Below the pieces are notes generated by a model. It was not told the origin of the DNA, made no database searches, and was given only the letters and a program-made list of their open reading frames with translations. Of a stretch of 64,000 nt of DNA, positions 16,467-27,421 are shown piece by piece. The stretch covers positions 85,436-149,435 of the forward strand of contig JBMNRW010000001.1 of NCBI GenBank assembly GCA_050944875.1, in the 5' to 3' direction. A program made the translations under genes and the position numbers. Source of the stretch: Patescibacteria group bacterium. Lineage in GTDB: Bacteria > Patescibacteriota > UBA1384 > JACPKC01. The first letter of the stretch is position 1, and each line of letters starts with the position of its first letter.

Positions 16467-17009
16467 TTACGCGCCGGCTTTCGCGGCTTTCCCGGCCTTC
16501 CGCTGGACGATCTCATCGGAGTAGCGGATGCCTTTCCCCTTGTACGGCTCCGGCGGGCGGACGCGGCGGATGTTCGTCGCGACCTGGCCCACGAGTTGCT
16601 TGTCGATGCCGGTGACGGTGATGACGTTCTTCTGGACTGTGATCTCGATCCCCTCTGGTACGTCGAAGTTCACCGGGTGCGAGTAGCCGACGTTCAAGAC
16701 GAGCGTCTTCCCCTGCATCGCGGCCCGGTACCCGACGCCGTTAATCTCGAGCGATTTCGTATACCCGTTGGAGACGCCGGTGACGACGTTTGCGATGAGC
16801 CGAGTGCTTAGGCCGTGGAACGCCTTGGCGCGCTTGCCACCACCGCTCGTGGTGACGGTAATGACACTGTCCGCCTGTTCAACCACCGCGTACGGCGGCA
16901 GCGCCAAGCGGAGCTCGCCCTTCGGTCCTTTGGCAATGAGGTCTTTCCCGTCCACCGTTACGGTGACGTCGGCCGGAACGTGAATTGGTCGCTTACCAAT
17001 ACGGCTCAT
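16467..17009 (-). CDS. rplF: 50S ribosomal protein L6
   Basis: MSRIGKRPIHVPADVTVTV...; start ATG 17007-17009 overlaps the rpsH stop (ATGA). Confidence 0.95.
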   Translation of the reverse strand: MSRIGKRPIHVPADVTVTVDGKDLIAKGPKGELRLALPPYAVVEQADSVITVTTSGGGKRAKAFHGLSTRLIANVVTGVSNGYTKSLEINGVGYRAAMQGKTLVLNVGYSHPVNFDVPEGIEITVQKNVITVTGIDKQLVGQVATNIRRVRPPEPYKGKGIRYSDEIVQRKAGKAAKAGA

Positions 17010-17407
17010 GACAGTACCTCGCAAATGACTTCGCCGCCCATATGCCGTCGCTTCGCCTCGGCCCCGGTCATGAGACCGGCAGGCGTCGAGACAATCATGA
17101 GGCCGAAGTCGCCACGTGGCCGCGGAAGCTCTGCTGCGCCACGGTAGATCCGGAGCCCTGGGCGCGAGATGCGTCGGAGCGTTCGAATCGCCGGGATGCC
17201 GCCGTGGTACTTCAGCGTCACGATAAGCTGCTTCTTGACCCCGTCTTCAGCCGTCTCGGTGGCGACGTCCTCGATGTACTCCTTCTCTTTGAGGATCTCG
17301 AGGATGCCAGCCTTGAGGCGGGAGTGCGGGATCACGACCGTCGGCTTCTGGAGCGCGGCGGCGTTTCGGATTCGGGTGAGCATGTCTGCAATTGGGTCCA
17401 TACGCAC
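17006..17407 (-). CDS. rpsH: 30S ribosomal protein S8
   Basis: DPIADMLTRIRNA, S8 family. Confidence 0.95.
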   Translation of the reverse strand: MRMDPIADMLTRIRNAAALQKPTVVIPHSRLKAGILEILKEKEYIEDVATETAEDGVKKQLIVTLKYHGGIPAIRTLRRISRPGLRIYRGAAELPRPRGDFGLMIVSTPAGLMTGAEAKRRHMGGEVICEVLS

Positions 17408-17409
17408 TC

Positions 17410-17595
17410 CTACCAGGATGACTTTACGACGCCGGGGATCTCCCCGCGGCTTGCTCGTTCACGGAAGCAAATCCGGCACAGGCCGAACCGTCGAAGGTAG
17501 CCGTGACCGCGACCGCAGATCCCGCACCGGTTGACCCGGCGAGTCGAGAACTTCGGCCGTCGCTTCGATTTGGCAATCATTGACTTCTTCGCCAT
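17410..17595 (-). CDS. rpsN: 30S ribosomal protein S14, type Z (zinc-binding, 61 aa)
   Basis: [23 protein letters not shown] CxxC...CxxC motif. Confidence 0.95.
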
Positions 17596-17599
17596 AGCC

Positions 17600-18142
17600 T
17601 TAGCTCCGTTTCACGAGTGGGAACCCGAGCGCTCGTAGGAGCGACTCTGCGGCCCGATTGTCGGTTGCTGTTGTGGTAATCGTAATACCGACCCCGTAGA
17701 ACTCCCGGACGTTGTCCTGGTTGATCTCAGGGAAGACGGTGTGTTCGCGAACGCCGAAGCTGTAGTTTCCGCGCCCGTCAAACCCAGTGGTCGGGAGGCC
17801 GCGGAAGTCGCGGATGCGCGGGAGGACAACCGTCACGAGGCGCTGGAAGAAATCTTCCATCCGCTTACCCCGGAGCGTCACCGCGTACCCAACAACCTCA
17901 CCGGCGCGGAGCTTGAACCCGGCAATCGCCTTGCGGGCGGTGCGGGTCACTGGCTTCTGGCCCGTAATGAGCGCCAGGTCGCGGGTAACGATCTCCTCGA
18001 GCCCCTGCGTACCGCGTCGCGAACCCGTGCCGACGTTCACGCTGATCTTCGCGAGGCGTGGTACCGCGTGCGCGTTCTTCACGCCGAGCTCTTTCGTGAG
18101 CGCGGGCGCAACGGTCTTCGTGTACTGCTCTTTGAGGCTCAT
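17600..18142 (-). CDS. rplE: 50S ribosomal protein L5
   Basis: [20 protein letters not shown]..., L5 family. Confidence 0.95.
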
Positions 18143-18402
18143 GCGGTCCTCGCTTTACGGGTCGGTTTGCCGTCGGCGTCGACGCGGAGCACGTTGCTCG
18201 CGTGGACTGCGGCGTTGGTCGTCACGATGCCGCCGTGTGGCTGCTTCGGGGTCGGTTTCGTGTGCTTCTTCACTTCGCCCACGCCCTCAACGACGAGACG
18301 TGATTTCGACGGGAGGACGCGCAGGACCTTGCCGCGCTTCCCCTTGTCCTTGCCGGAGATGACGAGGACGGTGTCGCCGGTTTTGATCTTTAGGGTCGTC
18401 AT
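18139..18402 (-). CDS. rplX: 50S ribosomal protein L24
   Basis: [29 protein letters not shown] motif; start placed just after the rplN stop (ORF extends to 18513). Confidence 0.9.
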
Positions 18403-18403
18403 A

Positions 18404-18772
18404 CTACACCACCTCTGGCGCCAAGGAGACAATCTTCTGGTAGCCGCGGCCGCGAATTTCACGGGCAACCGGTCCGAGGACGCGAGTGCCGCGTGGCTGG
18501 CCGGCGTCGTCAATAATCACCACCGCGTTGTCGTCAAAGCGGATCGTCGAGCCGTCAAAGCGCTGAAATGGCGCGCGCTGGCGGACAATGACCGCCTTCA
18601 CGACCTCTTTGCGCTTCACGGTGCCGCGAGGTAGCGCCTCCTTGACGCTCGCGACGATGATATCGCCGAGCTGGGCAGCATCATGGCTGCGTCCGCCAAT
18701 GACCCGGATGCACTGGATAACCTTCGCGCCGGTGTTATCGGCGACATGGAGTCTGGAGTACGGCTGAATCAT
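18404..18772 (-). CDS. rplN: 50S ribosomal protein L14
   Basis: [25 protein letters not shown]14 family. Confidence 0.95.
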
Positions 18773-19032
18773 GCGAGCTCCTCAACGGTGCTCCCGCGGC
18801 TGACGACTCGCGTCAGCACGTGGCTCTTCCGCTTGCTCACCGGCCGGCACTCCGTGATTTCCACGGTGTCACCGAGGTTGACTGTCATGTCAGTTGGGAC
18901 GTGCACGAGGAACGAGCGCGTCACACGGTACGGCTTCTCGTAGATGGGGTGCCGACGCACGTCTTCGACCCGGACCCGGATGGTCGGGAGGTTGACGTGG
19001 ACGACAGTGCCTGTTTGCGCAGTTCGTGCCAT
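18769..19032 (-). CDS. rpsQ: 30S ribosomal protein S17
   Basis: [33 protein letters not shown]; start placed after the rpmC stop. Confidence 0.9.
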
Positions 19033-19034
19033 GG

Positions 19035-19271
19035 TTAGTTCGCTTTCTCTTTCGCACCCTCGGCGTCCCGGGTCAGTTTCTCCCCGAGAACAGTCCAAAG
19101 CTGCGCCAGTTCACGCTTCGCTGTGCGCAGCTCTTTGAGCGCGCTCACGGTACCAAACCCAACGTCGAATCGCAAGGAACGAATCTTCTCGTACCGGGTA
19201 TCGAGCTCCTTTCGGAGCCACGCCGCGTCCTTGTCGCGGATCGTCTTGAGGAAGTCAGTGTGCTTGGCCAT
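19035..19271 (-). CDS. rpmC: 50S ribosomal protein L29
   Basis: LRKELDTRYEKIRSLRFDVGFG, L29 family. Confidence 0.9.
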   Translation of the reverse strand: MAKHTDFLKTIRDKDAAWLRKELDTRYEKIRSLRFDVGFGTVSALKELRTAKRELAQLWTVLGEKLTRDAEGAKEKAN

Positions 19272-19272
19272 A

Positions 19273-19683
19273 TTAGCTCTCCCTCGTCACGAAGCGGGTC
19301 AGGACGGACAGCTTGTGGGCGCCGAGGCGGAGCGCTTCCTTCGCCTGAGCTTCAGTGACGCCGTCCATCTCGAAGATGATGTTGCCTGGGCGGATGACGG
19401 CGACGAAGTGGTCGAGTGCGCCCTTTCCGCTCCCCATCGGCTTTTCTGGTGAGCCGGCAGTGACTGGCTTATCGGGGAAAATGCGGATCCAGACTTTTCC
19501 ACCGCGCTGGATGTAGCGGGTGATTGCTCGCCGCGCAGCTTCGATCTCGCGTGAGCTCATCCAGCCGCGGGTCGTGGCCTTCAGGCCGAACTTTCCGAAC
19601 GCGACGCTGTTGCCGCGCAGGGCGTAGCCGCCGCGCTTGCCGCGGTGCTGCTTCCGGTGCTTGAGTTTCTTCGGCAGTAACAT
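19273..19683 (-). CDS. rplP: 50S ribosomal protein L16
   Basis: [20 protein letters not shown]16 family. Confidence 0.95.
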
Positions 19684-19692
19684 GCTCGCTCC

Positions 19693-20427
19693 TTACCGGC
19701 CCTGGCGGTCTTGCGTCGCTGTAGCTGGGGCGACTGGCCGCTCGCCGCGGTAGATCCAGACCTTCACCCCGATCGTGCCGTACGACGCGGTCTTCGCATC
19801 CACGTGCGCGTAGTCAATTTCATTTTTCAGGGTTGAGAGCGGGACGGTCCCTTCAGCGTACTTCTCGCGGCGGGCAATGTCCGAATCGTTCAAGCGACCG
19901 CTCACGGAGATCTTCATCCCCTGGGCGCCGCGCTGCATCGTCTTCTCGATGGCCTGGCGAACGGCGCGTCGGTACGGGAACCGGTTCTCAATCTGGCTCG
20001 CAATCGTCTGGGCGACGAGCATCGCGTAGAGTTCCGGCGCCTTGATCTCGACGATCTCAATCTTTAAGCCGGCCGGGAGCGACTTCTTCCGCTCGTTCTC
20101 GCTCCGGACGTACTGTCGGAGGTTCTTGTCTCGGAACGATTGCAGCGTGCGCGCCATTTTCTCGCGCATCGCCTTAATGCCAGCGCCGCCGCGACCAATC
20201 ACCACGCCCGGCTTCGCCGTGTGGATGATAATCTTGACGTCCTGCGGGCTTCGCTCGATCTCGACACGCTCGATCGCCGCGTTCTTGCCGTACGTCACGT
20301 CGATCAGGCTGCGGATCGCCGCGTCCTCAATGACGTTGTACGCGATCATATGGTTCGCGAACCACTTCGAGCGCCAGTTCTTCGTGAGCGGCAGGCGGTT
20401 CGAGATAGGGTTGGTCTTGTGGGTCAT
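19693..20427 (-). CDS. rpsC: 30S ribosomal protein S3
   Basis: KH domain and S3 C-terminal domain (GRGGAGIKAMRE). Confidence 0.95.
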   Translation of the reverse strand: MTHKTNPISNRLPLTKNWRSKWFANHMIAYNVIEDAAIRSLIDVTYGKNAAIERVEIERSPQDVKIIIHTAKPGVVIGRGGAGIKAMREKMARTLQSFRDKNLRQYVRSENERKKSLPAGLKIEIVEIKAPELYAMLVAQTIASQIENRFPYRRAVRQAIEKTMQRGAQGMKISVSGRLNDSDIARREKYAEGTVPLSTLKNEIDYAHVDAKTASYGTIGVKVWIYRGERPVAPATATQDRQGR

Positions 20428-20885
20428 GCCTGCTCCTTCTTCGTCGTGCGGCGCTTCGGGGTCGCGGCAGCCGTCTGCTCGGTCTTCGGTGTCTCAGCCT
20501 TCGCTTCGGCAGCCTTGGGCTCAGCCTTTGGCGCTGGAGCCTTTGGTGTCACGATCGGCTCAACCGAGAGCGTCAGGTGCGACCCGCGCTTCGCGAACCG
20601 GCCAGCCCGGCCCTTGCTCTTCCGGCGGGTGCGGTAGAGCCGCATCGCGTCGTTGCAGAATACCTCGGCCACCCGGAGGTCGGTGCCCTTGAGGTTTGGG
20701 TTCTTGTCTTGCGCCGCAGAGATTGAGGCGCGCAAGAGCTTGCGGAGCGGTTCAGCCGTAAGGCGTGGTGAGGCGTCGAGGCGAGCAATCGCGTTCGCAA
20801 CGACCGCGCCGCGGACATGGTGTAGTACCGCGCGGAGCTTGCGCGGAGGAATCGGGAGTCGGTTGTAGTGGACGGTAACGCGCAT
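20424..20885 (-). CDS. rplV: 50S ribosomal protein L22 with Ala/Pro/Lys-rich C-terminal extension
   Basis: L22 core plus ~45-aa low-complexity tail. Confidence 0.9.
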   Translation of the reverse strand: MRVTVHYNRLPIPPRKLRAVLHHVRGAVVANAIARLDASPRLTAEPLRKLLRASISAAQDKNPNLKGTDLRVAEVFCNDAMRLYRTRRKSKGRAGRFAKRGSHLTLSVEPIVTPKAPAPKAEPKAAEAKAETPKTEQTAAATPKRRTTKKEQA

Positions 20886-20893
20886 ACGTGTCC

Positions 20894-21172
20894 TTACTTC
20901 GCCGGCTCAGCAGCGGCTTTGCCACCGTGGCGTCGGAACTTCCGTGTCGGCGAGAACTCGCCGAGCTTGTGCCCGACCATATCCTCGACAACGAGGACGC
21001 TGATGAAGTCGCGGCCGTTGTGGACCTGGAACGTGAGACCCACCATCTCTGGTGTGATCGTCGACGAGCGTGCCCACGTCTTGATCGGCGACGGCTTTGA
21101 ACGGTCGGCCTGCTCCACCTTCTTCATGAGTTTCGGGTCTACGAACGGACCTTTTTTCAGTGATCGGCTCAT
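20894..21172 (-). CDS. rpsS: 30S ribosomal protein S19
   Basis: [20 protein letters not shown]19 family. Confidence 0.95.
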
Positions 21173-21177
21173 GGCTC

Positions 21178-22023
21178 CTACTTCCTGCGCCCGCTGTGGC
21201 GGCTATGGACGATGTAGACGTTCGTCCGTCGGTTCTTTCGCGTCTTGTACCCAAGCGCCGGCTTACCCCATGGGGTTTTCGGGTGCTTGAGACCGATCGG
21301 CGAGTGGCCTTCACCACCACCGTGCGGGTGGTCATTCGGGTTCATCGACTTCCCGAGCACTTCTGGTCGGCGGCCCATGTGGCGCTTACGACCAGCCTTC
21401 CCGATTACGACAGACGAGTGCTCTGGGTTCGAGACCGTGCCGAGCGAAGCGTACGCAGTCGTGAGGACGCGTCGGACTTCGCCACTCGGGAGCTTAACCT
21501 GGGCGTAGCGGCCGTCATCCTCATGGGCGACGAGCGTGGCGTGTGTGCCGGCGGATCGGACCATCTGGCCTTTGCGATTCGGGTCGATCGCGATCTCGTA
21601 GATCGTGAAGCCGCGAGGGATGTTCTTCAGCGGAAGGCGGTTGCCGGGTTCGAGCAGGGCTTCAGCGCCGTGCTCCAGCACCTGACCAACCTTCATCTCC
21701 TGGCCAGCAAGAATGTACGCCTTCGTGCCGTCTTCGTAGCTTACGAGGGCGATGTTCGCGCTGCGGTTCGGGTCGTACTCAAGCGCAATGATCGTGGCGG
21801 TCGCTGACGTGCCCCGCTCGAGCGTGGAGATGATACGGTACTTGCGCTTGTTGCCGCCGCCCCGGTGGCGGATAGAGATGTGGCCAAACCGGTCACGACC
21901 GGCGTGCTTCTTGAGCGCCTCGGTGAGGGATTTCTCCGGCCGCTTCTTCGTGAGATGCGTCTGCTTGTTGACGGTCATCCCACGCTGGCCAGGGGTAGTC
22001 GACTTGCGTTCAATGATAGGCAT
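21178..22023 (-). CDS. rplB: 50S ribosomal protein L2
   Basis: L2 signature region and HPHGGGEG motif. Confidence 0.95.
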
Positions 22024-22025
22024 GG

Positions 22026-22361
22026 CTACTTCTTCTCCACTGCGTCGTGCGCGTGGTCGTGCTCATGGGTGTGGTCGTGGTCGTCCGCGGTCGGGACAGA
22101 GAGCTCGAAACCCGCGATCTTCTCGCCGGCCTTGAGGCGGACAATTGCCTTCGCTCGCTCCTGCGTGGCGCCGCGGCGCTTCGGCTTACTCGGACGCTTC
22201 GCGATGTTCACGTCTTCGACAGTCACCTTGTACGCCTGGCGGACTGCCTGGGCGATACCGAGCTTCGTCGCCCAGCGTGGGACGATGAAGGTGTACACGC
22301 CGCCTTCGGCGGACCGGAGCGACTTCTCGGTCACGAGTGGGAGGAGGGAGATTGTTCTCAT
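22026..22361 (-). CDS. rplW: 50S ribosomal protein L23 with His/Asp-rich C-terminal tail
   Basis: MRTISLLPLVTEKSLRS...; start placed after the rplD stop; C-terminus ...ADDHDHTHEHDHAHDAVEKK. Confidence 0.9.
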   Translation of the reverse strand: MRTISLLPLVTEKSLRSAEGGVYTFIVPRWATKLGIAQAVRQAYKVTVEDVNIAKRPSKPKRRGATQERAKAIVRLKAGEKIAGFELSVPTADDHDHTHEHDHAHDAVEKK

Positions 22362-23011
22362 TTCGCCGCCTTTGGCGCTGGGTTCTTCGCTGCTTTCGGA
22401 GCTGCCGGCTTCACGCCAATCCGATTCGCGAGCACGGTCCATGCGGCATCGTCAGCGACGATTTGCCCGGCACGGAGGATGTCACGGACGGTAGCGCGGT
22501 GCGCCGATTGGACGGTCACGCCCTCGAGGTTCTGGCTAGCGCGCGCGAGGAGCGGGGCGCTCATCTCACCGTGGAGGATGAGGAGTTGCTTCGCCGTAAT
22601 TACATCGTCCCGGAGCGCGTCGATCACCGACTTCGCTTTGCCGTCGGTTGGCCAGGCGTTCACCGTGAAGAGGCGCTTTGTCGCCGCGGCGTCAGCGAGC
22701 GCCGCTTTGAGCACTGCCTGCTTCGTGCGCTCGTTCACTGCTTGGGTGTAGTTCCGCTCTTTCTTCGGGCCGTGGGCAACGCCACCGGTCCGCCAGACAG
22801 GGTTACGTGACGAACCAACGCGGGCGTGTCCAGTACCCTTCTGTCGCCAGGGCTTCTTGCCGCCACCGCGGATGTCGCCGCGGGTGAGCGTGTGCGAACG
22901 GGCAACGCGCTCGTTCGCCTCGTACGCCTTCACGACGAGCGCGACAGCGACCGGCGAGACGTCGGTCGTGCCGACGAGTGCATCGAACTGCGTGGCCTGG
23001 GTGACGCTCAT
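22358..23011 (-). CDS. rplD: 50S ribosomal protein L4
   Basis: GGGKKPWRQKGTGHAR, L4 family. Confidence 0.95.
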   Translation of the reverse strand: MSVTQATQFDALVGTTDVSPVAVALVVKAYEANERVARSHTLTRGDIRGGGKKPWRQKGTGHARVGSSRNPVWRTGGVAHGPKKERNYTQAVNERTKQAVLKAALADAAATKRLFTVNAWPTDGKAKSVIDALRDDVITAKQLLILHGEMSAPLLARASQNLEGVTVQSAHRATVRDILRAGQIVADDAAWTVLANRIGVKPAAPKAAKNPAPKAAK

Positions 23012-23649
23012 GCTACCTCACCTTCTAGGTGGCGCGGCGAAATCGAGAGTTCGACGAGCGCACCCTTAATGCCTGGTACGGCGCCCTTGATCACGAGGAG
23101 GTGGTCCGAGGCAATGACGTCGAGCACCTCGAGGTGCTTCACCGTCACGCGCTCGTCACCCATGTGGCCAGCCATACGCTTGCCAGGAATGACGCGCTGC
23201 GGCTGCTGCGCACCGATCGAGCCCGGCCGGTTCACGTTCATCGAGCCGTGGCTCCGTGGCCCCTGGGCGAAGTTGTGTCGCTTCACTGTACCAGTGAACC
23301 CGTGCCCCTTGCTCGTCGCAACGGCGTTCACGATGTCGCCGCGCTTGAACACGTCCACCGTGATCTCGCTGCCGAGCTCTGGGAGCGTGGCAGCGGTGTC
23401 GGCAGGGCGAACCTCACGAAAGACATGGCCGGTCTCGGTCTTTGCCTTCTTCGCGTGGCCCTGCTGCGGCTTCTTCGCCTTCGTGGCGTCGCCAAAGCCG
23501 ACCTGTACGGCGACGTAGCCGTCCGTGTCGGTCGTCTTCACCTGCGTGACCACGTTGGGCGTGGCCTGGATAACGGTCGCACTGACGAGGTTACCCTCGC
23601 GGTCGAGCGCGCGCGTCATCCCAACTTTTCGTCCGAGTATGAACTGCAT
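23008..23649 (-). CDS. rplC: 50S ribosomal protein L3
   Basis: MQFILGRKVGMTRALDREGN, L3 family; separated from rpsJ by a 3.4-kb insertion. Confidence 0.95.
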   Translation of the reverse strand: MQFILGRKVGMTRALDREGNLVSATVIQATPNVVTQVKTTDTDGYVAVQVGFGDATKAKKPQQGHAKKAKTETGHVFREVRPADTAATLPELGSEITVDVFKRGDIVNAVATSKGHGFTGTVKRHNFAQGPRSHGSMNVNRPGSIGAQQPQRVIPGKRMAGHMGDERVTVKHLEVLDVIASDHLLVIKGAVPGIKGALVELSISPRHLEGEVA

Positions 23650-23808
23650 ACACCCTCATTTATGGGCACGTACGAAAAAGGGCCGGGATCTGTCCACCTT
23701 GGGCGGCGATTTCCCGACTCACCCTGCTCGCACTGTTAGGGGTTCGCTGAACTTCTTGGGGCAGTGTACGTGTTTAGAGACACCTTGTCAACGGCTACGT
23801 GCCGGCGG

Positions 23809-23837
23809 TTGACCAGAGTGGCACTACCCGTTACGGT
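23809..23837 (+). promoter_or_regulatory. candidate sigma70-type promoter for dut (TTGACC-N17-TACGGT)
   Basis: -35 TTGACC (23809-23814), 17-nt spacer, -10 TACGGT (23832-23837), ~50 nt upstream of the SD/ATG. Confidence 0.3.
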
Positions 23838-23886
23838 CGCACCGAGCTTTGCCCTTTTCCATTTTCTCGATTGGAGAACACCAATA

Positions 23887-24579
23887 ATGGAGAGTCTTTC
23901 GGTAGCAACGCAATCGACCCCGCGTTCTAACACTCCGCCGTACCCGCCGATCCGCGTCTTTCTCCTGCCAGGCGGCATGTTGCCGCAACGGATGAGCGCC
24001 GGAGCTGCCGGGTTTGATGTCTACGTCCGGGCAGTAGTGTCGGCAACGGGACTCGACGGGGAAGGACGGTTTCGCAGAACGCTCTTCGACTTCGAATCGC
24101 TGCGGGATCCGAACGTGGATCTGTACACGTACTACCGGGTAATTCGGAAACCGGACGGTTCGCTTGCGTATCGGCTCAATGCGGGTGAGCGCGTGACGCT
24201 CGGCATCGGCTTCGCCACGGAGTTTCCCTCCCCTGAGTTCTTCTGGGTGTCGCCGCGCTCCGGCCTGGCGTCGAAGCAAGGGGTTACGATTGGCAACGCG
24301 CCTGGGACGATTGACGCCGACTATCGGGGCGAAGCATGCGTCGTCCTTATTAACGGCAATGTACCGTCGCCACACGCTAACCTACCCTACGTCCGCAGTC
24401 GTGGTACCCGGATTGATTTCGCATTCGACATCACGCGAGGGATGCGGGTTGCGCAAGCGCTCTTTGGACGAGCTGGCGTTCCTGAGCTCCAGCTCGTTGA
24501 GCACTACGATGCGCTCACAGCAAGTGAACGTGGTTCCGGCGGCCTGGGTTCGACCGGACTCATTGATCATTGCGAGTAG
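23887..24579 (+). CDS. dut: divergent dUTP diphosphatase (all five dUTPase motifs, with insertions)
   Basis: Motif I AGFDV, II PRSG, III GTIDADYRGE, IV RVAQAL, V ERGSGGLGSTG; ~55-aa insertion between motifs I and II and ~12 aa between III and IV; start at ATG 23887 with GGAGAA SD (ORF track starts earlier at 23764). Confidence 0.7.
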   Translation: MESLSVATQSTPRSNTPPYPPIRVFLLPGGMLPQRMSAGAAGFDVYVRAVVSATGLDGEGRFRRTLFDFESLRDPNVDLYTYYRVIRKPDGSLAYRLNAGERVTLGIGFATEFPSPEFFWVSPRSGLASKQGVTIGNAPGTIDADYRGEACVVLINGNVPSPHANLPYVRSRGTRIDFAFDITRGMRVAQALFGRAGVPELQLVEHYDALTASERGSGGLGSTGLIDHCE

Positions 24580-24610
24580 CGACAAGTGAAGGCAGTAAAC
24601 GCAGCAATTT

Positions 24611-24638
24611 GACGGCGCGAAAGCGCCGTCTTCTTTTA
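24611..24638. terminator. terminator shared by convergent dut and TerC-like gene
   Basis: GACGGCGC-GAAA-GCGCCGTC hairpin followed by TTCTTTTAT on plus. Confidence 0.6.
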
Positions 24639-25562
24639 TGTAAGAGCAGGTGTTCGGGCCTGCTCCCGAACCGACCGCCAGAAGAAGTAGCTAATGATAA
24701 GAATCGTGACAATCGGCGAGAACCAGTGTGGTACGTGAACACCGAACGCATCGGCGAGCATGACGCCGCCAAGGACGAGCACGGAGTACATAGCTCCGTT
24801 CTTTAAGTACGCGTACCGCTTAATGCGCTCTACGTTGCCGACCGTAAGCTGGCGTACAACGATTGCGCCAATGCCATTACCAAGGAGGATGAGTGGCACA
24901 GAGAGCGTAAATGCGAATGCGCCCAGTACGCCGTCAATGGAAAACGTCGCGTCGATCGCTTCGAGACACAAGATTTTCGACAGGTCTGACAGATGGCCCG
25001 TTCCCGCTACGAGGTCTGCCTCTGCTCTCTCCGCCTGCGCTTTGAAGCCATGGGTAATGAAGAAGGCAGTGGAGCCGACGACGGCGCCGAATGCGAGGAG
25101 TGGATCCACTCGGAGCGCAAACCAGACAAGCGCAGAGAGGAGGATTGACACGACGGCGTAGAACCAAATACCTGTTCGCTGGAACAGTCGCTCGTGGCGG
25201 AGGCCAAAGTTCTTCTGCTCCAAGAAGAGCCAGTGGAAGAAGAGGAAGACGAGGAACGTCCCGCCGCCGGCGAGGAGGACGGGCGCAGCGGCCTCGATCG
25301 CCTCAATGACGTGCGGGTCGTTTGAGAAGGTCGCAGTTATCGCTTCGATCGGTCCAAGGCCAGGCGTGGCGAGTCAGACGATCAGCCATGGCAAGAGGCC
25401 GCGGATCAAGAAGACCGCAATGAGTATGCCCCAGACAAGAAACCAGCGCCGAGCCTTTTCCTTCATTGTAGAGAGTACTTCGGCGTTGATGATCGCGTTG
25501 TCGATACTCGAGACGGTCTCGAAGAGTCCGAGTACAATGAGTAGAGAGGACCAAATATCCAT
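24636..25562 (-). pseudogene. TerC-family integral membrane protein interrupted by an in-frame TGA (pseudogene, sequencing error or readthrough)
   Basis: N-terminal part (ATG 25560-25562, MDIWSSLLIVLGLFETVSSIDNAIINA) carries TerC motif 1; after TGA at 25374-25376 the same frame continues without ATG/GTG through motif 2 (LEAIDATFSIDGVLGAFAFT) to the stop at 24636. The ORF track's upstream extension (MAWKRSLVRIQYGPP) is the translated tRNA-Ala. Confidence 0.65.
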
Positions 25563-25589
25563 GGCGCAAGCGTAACGCGCGCAGTACAA

Positions 25590-25612
25590 CAAAATAACGC
25601 CGGGCGGCGTTG
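25590..25612 (-). terminator. terminator downstream of tRNA-Ala
   Basis: Minus strand AACGCC-GCCC-GGCGTT followed by ATTTTGTTG. Confidence 0.45.
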
Positions 25613-25628
25613 TTCGGTAGGTATGCAG

Positions 25629-25704
25629 TGGTGGACCGTACTGGATTCGAACCAGCGACCTCTTCCATGCCATGGAAGCGCTCTACCAACTGAGCTAACG
25701 GCCC
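25629..25704 (-). tRNA. tRNA-Ala (anticodon GGC)
   Basis: GGGCCGTTAGCTCAGTTGGTAGAGCGCTTCCATGGCATGGAAGAGGTCGCTGGTTCGAATCCAGTACGGTCCACCA: cloverleaf with G3:U70, A73, anticodon loop AU-GGC-AU, encoded CCA. Confidence 0.9.
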
Positions 25705-25762
25705 AAGTGCGCGTGACGTCGGTATTCTACCCTGGAGGTCGACGGAGAGCAAGACTGCGGGT

Positions 25763-26266
25763 ATGCTTGACCTTGTGACTATAGCGCTTATTCTCCACAT
25801 TATCGGTGCGGTACTCGGCGTAGGCGGCGCAACATACAACGACCTCCTGCTGGTGCGTGCAATCGGCGACCGTGAGCTTGGGCCGGCGTACCAGAAGAAC
25901 GCCGCAGCATTCTCACTTGTCATCTGGACGGCGATCGCGCTCCTCGTCGCGACGGGACTATTCTTCGTCGTCAATGACACCTCGCTGCTGGCGAACCAAA
26001 AGTTCCTGACAAAGCTCAGCCTCGTCGTGCTTCTCGTCGTGAACGGCGGACTCATGAATTCGCTGTTTCAGCCGCCACTCGAGCGACTTCGCGCCATCGA
26101 CTGGGCCGAACGAACACCCGCGCTCTGCCGACTCGTCCGAGGCGCACTCCCCTTCGCGAGCATCTCCATTGTGACGTGGTACACCGTGCTGATTTTCGGA
26201 GCGCAGGCACGCAGCCGTGGACGACAGCACAGATTCTTCCTTGGTACGTCGGCGCTATCGTGGTAA
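25763..26266 (+). CDS. hypothetical integral membrane protein (4 TM)
   Basis: 167-aa ORF with four hydrophobic helices; no recognisable family. Confidence 0.5.
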   Translation: MLDLVTIALILHIIGAVLGVGGATYNDLLLVRAIGDRELGPAYQKNAAAFSLVIWTAIALLVATGLFFVVNDTSLLANQKFLTKLSLVVLLVVNGGLMNSLFQPPLERLRAIDWAERTPALCRLVRGALPFASISIVTWYTVLIFGAQARSRGRQHRFFLGTSALSW

Positions 26267-26400
26267 ACTACCTCGTCGCGCTCTTCGTACTCGAACAGCG
26301 CCTCGGCGCGGTCCGCTAGCGATCGCGCTCTTGCTTCATACCTGTTCTCCAGGTACGTTTTCTATACTCTTTTCAAACCCGAATGCCGGAGGATAGCTGT

Positions 26401-26994
26401 ATGCAACGCGGACACGCAATCCGACCCCTCGAGCGCGCTGAGGACAGTCAGGAACCCTGGGTGTTCCTCGCGGGCCCGATTCAGGGCGCGGCCGACTGGC
26501 AGGCCCAGGCGATCGAGCTCCTGCACGCAATTGACCCAGTGCTCAACATCGCGAACCCGCGCTCAGCTGAACCATTTCACGGGAACTGGCGCGCGCAGGT
26601 GCACTGGGAATCATACTACCTTCGACTCGCCGCTTTGACCGGCTGTATACTCTTCTGGGGCGCGGAAGAGCAGAAACACACCTGCAATCGTGCGTACGCA
26701 CAGACGACGAGATTCGAACTCGGTGAGTGGTTCGCCCTTCATCAGTTCCTCCACTGCCAAGTCGTGATTGGTTGCCACACAAGATTTACCGGTATGCGTT
26801 ATCTGTGTGAGCGGTACTTCTTCACACCAACCGAATCGGTTCGCGTCCACCATAACCTCGAGGCCGTCTGCACTGAGGCTGCCGCCCGGGCGCGAATGCA
26901 CACTGAGCGCGGCACACGTCGGGAAAGCGCATTTAAGGACTCGCCGCTCAATCTCAATTACTACAGGCAATTTCTCGAAAACTTGCTTTCGTAA
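26401..26994 (+). CDS. nucleoside 2-deoxyribosyltransferase / DNPH1 (Rcl)-like protein
   Basis: WVFLAGPIQGAADW resembles the N-terminal YF(A/C)G(P/S) nucleotide-binding motif and TTRFELGEW the catalytic xELG motif of the NDT/DNPH1 fold; start at the second ATG (GGAGGA SD). Confidence 0.45.
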   Translation: MQRGHAIRPLERAEDSQEPWVFLAGPIQGAADWQAQAIELLHAIDPVLNIANPRSAEPFHGNWRAQVHWESYYLRLAALTGCILFWGAEEQKHTCNRAYAQTTRFELGEWFALHQFLHCQVVIGCHTRFTGMRYLCERYFFTPTESVRVHHNLEAVCTEAAARARMHTERGTRRESAFKDSPLNLNYYRQFLENLLS

Positions 26995-27001
26995 AACAAA
27001 T

Positions 27002-27033
27002 AAAAGAGCGGACCCCATTCGGGATCCGCTCTT
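27002..27033. terminator. strong rho-independent terminator after rpsJ (minus) and the NDT-like gene (plus)
   Basis: AAGAGCGGACCCCATTCGGGATCCGCTCTT hairpin; on minus followed by TTTATTTGTTTT. Confidence 0.7.
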
Positions 27034-27051
27034 CTTCTGTACCAAGCCGAG

Positions 27052-27387
27052 TTAGCCAGTCTTCACTTCGACGTCGACGCCAGCCGGAAGGTCGAGGCTC
27101 ATGAGTGCGTCAATCGTTTTCGAGGTCGGCGAGAGCACGTCGATGAGTCGCTTATGAATCCGCTGCTCGAACTGCTCGCGTGCGTCCTTGTGCTTGAAGG
27201 TGGAACGGAGCACCGTCACCTTCTTCACTTCCGTCGGGAGCGGGATCGGCCCGTTCACGGTTGCGCCCGTGCGCTTCGTCGTATCGAGGATCTTCCGTGC
27301 CGACTGGTCGATGACGCGGTAGTCGTACGCCTTGAGGCGGATGCGGATCCGCTGCGAGGCTGAAGTTGGAGTGCTCTTCGCTGACAT
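27052..27387 (-). CDS. rpsJ: 30S ribosomal protein S10
   Basis: [23 protein letters not shown]10 family. Confidence 0.95.
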
Positions 27388-27421
27388 AAGGTGCTAGCTC
27401 GCTTGCTCTGCTGGTACTTGG

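Follow-up and report, generated by a model that had tools for sequence, protein, structure and literature searches.

An in-frame TGA at a conserved tryptophan codon of a DUF475 gene from a Patescibacteria group bacterium: probably a very young nonsense pseudogene

TerC-family proteins are polytopic membrane proteins that have been implicated in manganese export and in the metalation of secreted enzymes (PMC10550928, PMC12096827, PMC13274385). The gene described here belongs to a related family, DUF475, and is interrupted by a single in-frame TGA; it is located on the minus strand, at positions 24636..25562, of a 64,000-nucleotide stretch of contig JBMNRW010000001.1 from a Patescibacteria group bacterium (assembly GCA_050944875.1), which is referred to as the window. 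In several TerC subfamilies, a yybP-ykoY manganese riboswitch is typical of the leader. DUF475 itself was found to be mentioned only incidentally in the literature, and no functional study on it was found. With regard to the stop codon, UGA is the most readthrough-prone of the three, and a C at the position directly following it (+4) weakens termination in bacteria (PMC5289835); tRNA-Trp(CCA) is able to decode UGA (PMC13092985).

The interrupted gene is best explained as a derived TGG>TGA nonsense allele, that is, a very young pseudogene or null allele, to which a probability of roughly 0.74 is assigned. The event is of a known kind, an ordinary nonsense pseudogene.

The interrupted reading frame and its family

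The DUF475 frame starts with the ATG at 25562 and ends with the TAA at 24638..24636. Its parts are the following.

24636..25562, minus strand: DUF475 (TerC-clan) reading frame, 308 sense codons with one internal TGA and a terminal TAA, as seen in sequence and translation
25376..25374, minus strand: in-frame TGA at codon 63, where a Trp (TGG) is conserved; the substitution lies at 25374 (coding-strand A)
25377..25562, minus strand: N-terminal stub of 62 codons, comprising the hairpin of the first two transmembrane helices (TM1-TM2) with the ExxSxDNA motif; sole product if the stop is obeyed
24636..25373, minus strand: post-stop part of 245 codons, family-like throughout, with the invariant residues kept except Tyr199 and without a usable restart

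The codons around the stop are ATC GTC TGA CTC GCC, the +4 base being C. One frame holds both conserved motifs, ETVSSIDNA at residues 15-23 and IDATFSIDGVLGAFAFT at residues 203-219. An earlier interpretation of this DNA, made from its letters alone (the sequence-only reading), had proposed a single frame carrying both motifs, a single in-frame TGA and a C after it; the frame is borne out by sequence, translation and a profile match across the stop, and the C by the context GTC TGA CTC.

With the stop masked, the Pfam model of DUF475 (PF04332) matches residues 20-302 with 162.1 bits, against a cut-off of 27, and is covered from position 1 to 291 of 293; the NCBIfam equivalog NF010612 (PRK14013.1-2) reaches 438.3 bits against a cut-off of 386 (model positions 10-303 of 307). 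As the family profile is matched without a break through the stop codon, the interrupted frame is not a chance pattern. The Pfam TerC model PF03741 scores 66.9 bits, which is over its gathering score yet second to DUF475, and the models of the TerC subfamilies YkoY, Alx and YjbE remain far under their cut-offs (TIGR03716, 43.6 against 138.5 bits; TIGR03718, 17.4 against 246.4; TIGR03717, 17.2 against 134.8). Judged by these profiles, the gene is a DUF475 protein of the TerC clan and not TerC proper. The label "TerC-family" given in the sequence-only reading was right with respect to the Pfam clan and the secondary match to PF03741, but not to the best family, which is DUF475 (PF04332, NF010612).

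In a large protein collection, the homologs listed are uninterrupted proteins of about 300-335 amino acids and stem from Patescibacteria (the candidate phyla radiation, CPR) and related uncultured lineages. The closest, P0001 and P0002, are 90% and 79% identical to the protein of the window, and the best DUF475 match among the GTDB representative genomes is 75% identical. Both these homologs and the sister strain described below possess single uninterrupted open reading frames (ORFs), not the two separate ORFs which had been named as the finding that would overturn the interpretation. All of the more than 100 invariant columns of the family alignment (A1) are kept in the copy of the window; in an alignment of 120 homologs, only two sites of at least 95% conservation deviate in it, and these within the range of the homologs, the exceptions being the deletion of Leu-Gly in TM1 and the replacement of Tyr199 by Cys.

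The alignment column opposite the stop contains Trp in 104, Tyr in 9 and Phe in 7 of the 120 homologs; Cys and Gly never occur. On the DNA level, the codon at this site in the 80 representative genomes with a homolog is TGG in 72 cases, TAT or TAC in five, TTT or TTC in two, and TGA in one, and the genes of P0001 and P0002 have TGG as well. Since the nearest relatives and 72 of the 80 genomes have TGG at the site, the TGA can be derived from an ancestral Trp codon by one G>A transition. A sense codon for Trp, Gly or Arg had been expected in orthologs, and Trp is the one found.

An intact allele in a sister strain and the reality of the lesion

The evidence that carries the pseudogene interpretation comes from a sister strain, represented by a 34-kb Logan contig (L096; run SRR23967303) that was reached via a 99%-identical ribosomal protein L3 (P0241). 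Over 8,639 nucleotides (window 25640..17008; L096:4004-12642), it is 99.51% identical to the window, with the gene order DUF475, dUTPase-like, L3, L4, L23 and onward common to both. The DUF475 gene of L096 is an intact ORF of 310 amino acids with TGG at the site. The two copies differ as follows.

25374, minus strand: TGA (stop) in the window, TGG (Trp) in L096
About 25524-25535, minus strand: one CTCGGA repeat in the window, two in tandem in L096; a 6-nucleotide in-frame loss of Leu-Gly from TM1, its placement within the repeat being ambiguous
25175 (codon 25173..25175), minus strand: ACA (Thr130) in the window, GCA (Ala) in L096
25007, minus strand: GCG (Ala) in the window, ACG (Thr) in L096
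24967 (codon 24966..24968), minus strand: TGT (Cys199) in the window, TAT (Tyr) in L096

The polarity of these changes was determined by comparison with P0001, P0002 and the 120 homologs. In the lineage of the window, the stop, the 6-nucleotide deletion, Thr130 and Cys199 are derived; L096 has a single derived change, at 25007. At the TM1 repeat L096 reads CTCGGACTCGGA, and P0001 and P0002 also have both extra codons; the Leu and the Gly that are deleted in the window are each present in 120 of 120 homologs. Tyr199 is found in 117 of the 120, so that the derived missense change to Cys199 affects a nearly invariant position. Residue 130 is Ala in L096, P0001 and P0002; the missense change to Thr130, which is likewise derived, concerns a variable position. 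The stop is derived, not conserved. Of the three explanations considered in the sequence-only reading (pseudogene, assembly error, readthrough), the recent pseudogene is the one best supported, given the TGG of the conspecific strain, its intact gene and the further derived lesions in the copy of the window.

The course of events would have been a single G>A transition that turned the Trp63 codon TGG into TGA, in the gene of a normally uninterrupted, polytopic membrane protein of about 310 amino acids. With the UGA obeyed, translation would stop after 62 residues, i.e., after TM1-TM2, and neither the later helices nor the second conserved motif would be made. The DUF475 protein would most likely be non-functional. 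Traces of full-length protein of wild-type sequence might arise by near-cognate decoding of the UGA by tRNA-Trp, which would then be an incidental leak and not a programmed one.

Between the window and L096, the DUF475 gene has accumulated four nonsynonymous and no synonymous substitutions. On the longer time scale, the comparison of the window with P0001 reveals no rate acceleration (9 versus 13 unique amino-acid changes; 37 versus 42 unique synonymous codon states), which cautions against over-reading the short-term pattern; because of this lack of acceleration on the branch to P0001, the inactivation, if real, would be very recent.

Several observations weigh against a young pseudogene. The ratio of 4:0 is not significantly apart from the 16:13 of the flanking genes, i.e., the dUTPase-like gene and the ribosomal protein genes (Fisher p = 0.12), and gene-specific relaxed selection is for this reason not demonstrated. 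Among the 36 substitution sites between window and L096 (17008-25640), counted in the direction from L096 to the window, 23 are GC>AT and 11 are AT>GC, and the GC>AT set includes a Pro8>Ser exchange at a conserved position of L2; this excess could fit either recent mutation accumulation or an imperfect consensus. Finally, an independent assembly does not cover the decisive site. Two Logan contigs of run SRR31066179, L006 (25254..17008) and L007 (25656..27938), are both 100% identical to the window over 8.2 kb and 2.3 kb, respectively, but leave the 401 nucleotides 25255-25655, which contain the TGA and the 6-nucleotide deletion, uncovered, so that neither lesion is corroborated by them.

As a separate observation, 16 nonsynonymous to 13 synonymous substitutions is a high nonsynonymous share for ribosomal protein genes. 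Regarding the contig ends, the break at 25656 falls at the strain-variable junction of a tRNA-Ala gene (see below), which would break a de Bruijn assembly; the break of L006 at 25254 lies within the coding stretch GGGTFLVFLFFHW.

The first rival explanation is an artefact of assembly, base calling or consensus, according to which the true codon would be TGG, or a minority or erroneous base would have been picked from a mixed population, the gene being intact. In its favor, the independent assembly breaks on both sides of 25255-25655, the sister strain has TGG, and the GC>AT excess of 23:11 touches some conserved residues of ribosomal proteins; in addition, no protein fragment of the same species spanning the site was present in the protein collection. 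Exact look-ups of the fragment products of 62, 99 and 195 amino acids and of a 203-amino acid neighbor likewise gave no match. On the other hand, all of the sequence that can be cross-checked is 100% identical, including two derived missense changes in this very gene (the bases of Cys199 and Thr130 are reproduced by the independent contig L006), and one miscalled base would not account for several independent derived lesions. Moreover, equivalent alleles recur across independent samples (L064 and L089; P0220 on 12 contigs; P0127 in two runs), as described in the following section. Single-base substitution errors are rare in consensus assemblies. An artefact is regarded as unlikely, albeit as the rival to be taken most seriously, and the lesion is probably real rather than an error of the consensus.

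Recurrent stops, readthrough and the genetic code

Stops at conserved Trp codons are also encountered in other DUF475 lineages. One of the 80 representative genomes, labelled Nanoarchaeota H51-bin340_1 (L064; 43% GC), has TGA at the same codon in an otherwise intact gene; its neighbor genes are intact and use TGG 35 times. A scan of metagenome contigs for TGA at codon 63, with a pattern of 47 bits, yielded two contigs, L089 and L088. L089 is the organism of L064 in another assembly (100% identical; 101-kb versus 44.7-kb contig). L088 is a third lineage with its nearest homologs in methanogen metagenome-assembled genomes (MAGs), and has, besides the TGA, a frameshift about 40 codons downstream. 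Since each of the three carriers of a TGA at Trp63 (W63) is nearer to relatives with Trp (or Tyr) than to the other carriers, the three events are independent. At other Trp codons, otherwise intact genes were found with W133-TAG on 12 contigs from JGI, ENA and Logan samples (P0220), with W133-TGA in two Logan runs (P0127), and with W111-TGA in an NCBI MAG. The coordinates of the single-stop DUF475 loci are as follows.

L064:3001-3903 (equal to L089)
L088:254-1170
L093:2501-3439
L094:1377-2294 (equal to L095)
L090:2501-3439 (equal to L091 and L092)

Altogether, at least six independent lineages associated with CPR, DPANN or methanogens are affected: W63-TGA three times (window included), W111-TGA, W133-TGA and W133-TAG. 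These are counts of carriers only, and no hotspot at W63 is claimed. As a rough control for the positions of truncation, a protein search restricted to the N-terminal part was reused; 12 of the C-termini of 120 short family fragments are located just before a conserved Trp (four at W111, seven at W133, one at W147), with a binomial p = 6e-4 against a uniform distribution. The recurrent Trp>stop lesions point to the ordinary G>A route in a Trp-rich membrane protein of a very large family and not to a site-specific device. That they would reflect selection, either for a protein switched off or for a "leaky null" with low-level wild-type protein, instead of mutational noise, is very doubtful.

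A related proposal is that of a tolerated or selected leaky stop in the window itself, where tRNA-Trp would read UGA-C at a few per cent and the allele would be a low-expression form of a still-functional, transporter-like protein. Such decoding by near-cognate tRNA-Trp would insert precisely the conserved residue, the remaining ORF is intact and free of frameshifts, two other lineages have independently acquired a TGA at this Trp codon, and in further lineages a single Trp>stop allele is seen in more than one sample. The leak-prone nature of the UGA-C context, to which the sequence-only reading had drawn attention, is supported by the literature (PMC5289835). However, neither the conspecific strain nor any close relative has the stop, and both rbfA and rplV of the window end normally at TGA-C, the same tetranucleotide as that of the internal stop. 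Among the independent TGA cases the +4 base varies (C, G, G, C, T), and in one lineage the stop is a TAG; L088, another copy with TGA at W63, is frameshifted in addition; and the enrichment of fragment ends before several Trp codons fits a mutational route over a specific site. Within the copy of the window, the loss of two TM1 residues and of a nearly invariant Tyr looks like decay and not like tuning. Taking both sides together, a leaky stop of this type seems quite improbable.

Programmed readthrough, which had been held open before, finds no support: the stop is not conserved within the species, being absent from L096 as well as from the 90% and 79% identical relatives, it has no conserved context, UGA-C is ordinary in this DNA, and no structure follows it. 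The stop together with the 80 downstream nucleotides (89 nucleotides in all) folds like its shuffled versions (z = -0.5), revealing neither a stimulatory RNA structure nor one resembling a selenocysteine insertion sequence (SECIS).

Another conceivable way around the stop is reinitiation. The first in-frame start-type codon 3' of it is the TTG at 25223, 51 codons on, from which gene callers predict an ORF of 195 amino acids; further in-frame GTG or ATG codons are located at 25151, 25109, 24899, 24791, 24782 and 24761. The statement that no ATG or GTG restart exists downstream holds for the first 50 codons, TTG 25223 being the first candidate, but not further downstream. Starts at the in-frame GTG and ATG codons could not rescue the protein, as TM3 and the conserved GGG/FHW region would be lost. 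A functional split gene, in which the N-terminal piece of 62 amino acids and a separately initiated C-terminal piece form a working protein, might be suggested by the 195-amino acid ORF and by some other lineages of the family in which a restart is only six codons past the stop. Nevertheless, the 20 nucleotides before TTG 25223 contain no purine-rich ribosome-binding sequence, and a start there drops residues 64-113, with the invariant P67, G70 and GGG99-101 and most of F-H-W 108-111. Considering also that the gene of the sister strain is unsplit, this arrangement is hardly credible.

The nonsense interpretation presupposes that UGA terminates translation in this organism. In some lineages of CPR bacteria UGA has been reassigned, and code 25, in which UGA stands for Gly, is used in some Gracilibacteria or Absconditabacteria. 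The tests of the genetic code were confined to the genes of the 64-kb window. In a Pfam scan of ten TGA-ended genes, those for PheS, RbfA, IF-2, S17 and a sugar transferase stop within 13 residues of the profile ends, and that for CdaA within 23. Several of the TGA stops are part of ATGA or GTGA overlaps with the next gene, and reading past the TGA stops of such genes would append 7 to 200 unrelated codons. Approximately 65 candidate genes with about 19,500 codons include about 180 TGG, and none of the others is interrupted by a TGA; rpoB, rpoC, fusA, tuf, infB, gyrA, gyrB and uvrA are all open. The stop usage of the 65 candidate ORFs is TGA 16, TAA 24 and TAG 25, so that TGA is in the minority for a genome of 60% GC but still used as a terminator. 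On the main coding (minus) strand, a crude composition screen detected no other TGA-split gene, the other minus-strand matches being TAA or TAG junctions; antisense frames of high-GC genes look coding in this screen, which is noisy and lends weak support only. UGA is a genuine stop in this organism, as the sequence-only reading had argued from TGA stops of other genes: the stops at profile ends, the ATGA overlaps and the lack of any other interrupting TGA all agree with it. With UGA acting as a stop codon here, translation of the gene as assembled ends after 62 residues.

It is against this background that a change in the code or a suppressor has to be judged, by which the UGA would be read as Trp (as in code 4), Gly (code 25) or selenocysteine. 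TGA is somewhat under-used as a stop (16 of 65), and the window holds only three tRNA genes, for tRNA-Ala, tRNA-Gln and tRNA-Val, which leaves room for a suppressor. Among the window ORFs scanned against Pfam, which were not all of them, no release-factor gene was present. Contrary to such a change, conserved genes end at TGA where their families end, and no in-frame TGA occurs in the roughly 19,500 codons; the conspecific L096 has TGG, and the homologs have Trp, Tyr or Phe at this position, but in no case Cys or Gly. By the ribosomal protein L3 of the window, which has its closest matches in named Candidatus Berkelbacteria sequences, the host, a high-GC CPR bacterium, is placed away from the code-25 lineages. 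Recoding is accordingly given next to no probability.

Of the individual variants, a selenoprotein was rejected, as no SECIS-like hairpin is located 3' of the stop and no homolog has Cys at this position. As far as the window extends, all three variants (code 4, code 25 and selenocysteine) are discarded on the grounds that TGA ends genes and that no other in-frame TGA occurs.

Neighborhood and comparison with known systems

The following features surround the DUF475 gene.

25629..25704, minus strand: tRNA-Ala(GGC) gene directly upstream of the DUF475 gene; strain-variable boundary, with homology to L096 ending at 25640
25596..25611, minus strand: terminator-like hairpin with T-run between the tRNA-Ala gene and the DUF475 ATG
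24611..24630, no strand assigned: GC-rich hairpin between the convergent DUF475 and dUTPase-like genes, likely a bidirectional terminator

In the approximately 28 nucleotides between the upstream hairpin and the DUF475 ATG (region 25563-25628), neither a sigma-70-like promoter on the same strand nor an obvious Shine-Dalgarno sequence was seen; the sister strain, whose gene is intact, shows the same hairpin-to-ATG arrangement. Transcription of the gene might depend on readthrough of this terminator from the tRNA gene, or on a leaderless or atypical promoter. An Rfam scan of 24300-26400 revealed no yybP-ykoY riboswitch, the tRNA-Ala being the sole match.

On the far side of the tRNA gene, the two strains diverge. 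Of tRNA-Ala, L096 (L096:3900-4015) retains only about the last 10 nucleotides (GGTCCACCA); the DNA beyond them is unrelated and contains genes for HTH_31 (XRE-type), PLDc_2 and DUF2779 proteins. The junction has the appearance of a strain-variable island inserted at the 3' end of the tRNA-Ala gene. The wider region is unusual as well. The genes rpsJ (S10; 27052-27387) and rplC (L3; 23008-23649), which are usually adjacent, are about 3.4 kb apart (window 23650-27390), and the S10 operon is interrupted, on mixed strands, by genes for a nucleoside-deoxyribosyltransferase-like protein, a 167-amino acid membrane protein, tRNA-Ala, DUF475 and the dUTPase-like protein.

Concerning the distribution of the family, DUF475 proteins of 65-75% identity are found in MAGs labelled Methanosarcinales, Methanoregula, Methanotrichaceae, DPANN, Chloroflexota, Acidobacteriota and others (loci L008-L087). 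For a comparison between domains, this degree of conservation is unusually high, which hints at horizontal transfer, at contamination during binning, or at both.

For annotation, the locus should be entered as a DUF475 pseudogene, or be flagged for verification on the read level, and neither as two small ORFs nor as evidence for a changed genetic code. Recoding and programmed readthrough could be set aside by means of the genes of the window itself and of a conspecific strain, which is a clean negative result. If the allele is real, it would represent gene loss in progress in a bacterium with a reduced genome, caught at a stage where the synonymous divergence from the intact allele within the gene is still zero.

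The gene can be compared with four known systems. With the metal-handling TerC proteins, such as MeeF and MeeY of B. subtilis, Alx of E. coli and TerC of V. parahaemolyticus, it shares the Pfam clan and a 67-bit match to PF03741; it differs from them in that the subfamily cut-offs are not reached and that the yybP-ykoY riboswitch is lacking upstream. A metal-related role for DUF475 would be an extrapolation from the TerC family. With DUF475 (PF04332/NF010612), it shares the full-length match, both acidic/Ser-Asp-Asn motifs, essentially all invariant residues and 70-90% identity to homologs from CPR, DPANN and methanogens; what sets it apart are the TGA at Trp63, the loss of two TM1 residues and the Cys at the nearly invariant Tyr199. 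The cases of programmed or leaky UGA readthrough have in common with it the UGA-C tetranucleotide and the Trp that would be expected from near-cognate decoding, whereas the stop of the window is devoid of conservation, context and structure, and UGA-C terminates normal genes nearby. With the ordinary Trp nonsense pseudogenes (TGG>TGA or TAG), the gene shares a derived stop that is one transition away from the sense codon, that the conspecific strain lacks and that occurs together with other derived lesions; from these, the present case is distinguished only by its youth, i.e., by the lack of any long-term rate acceleration.

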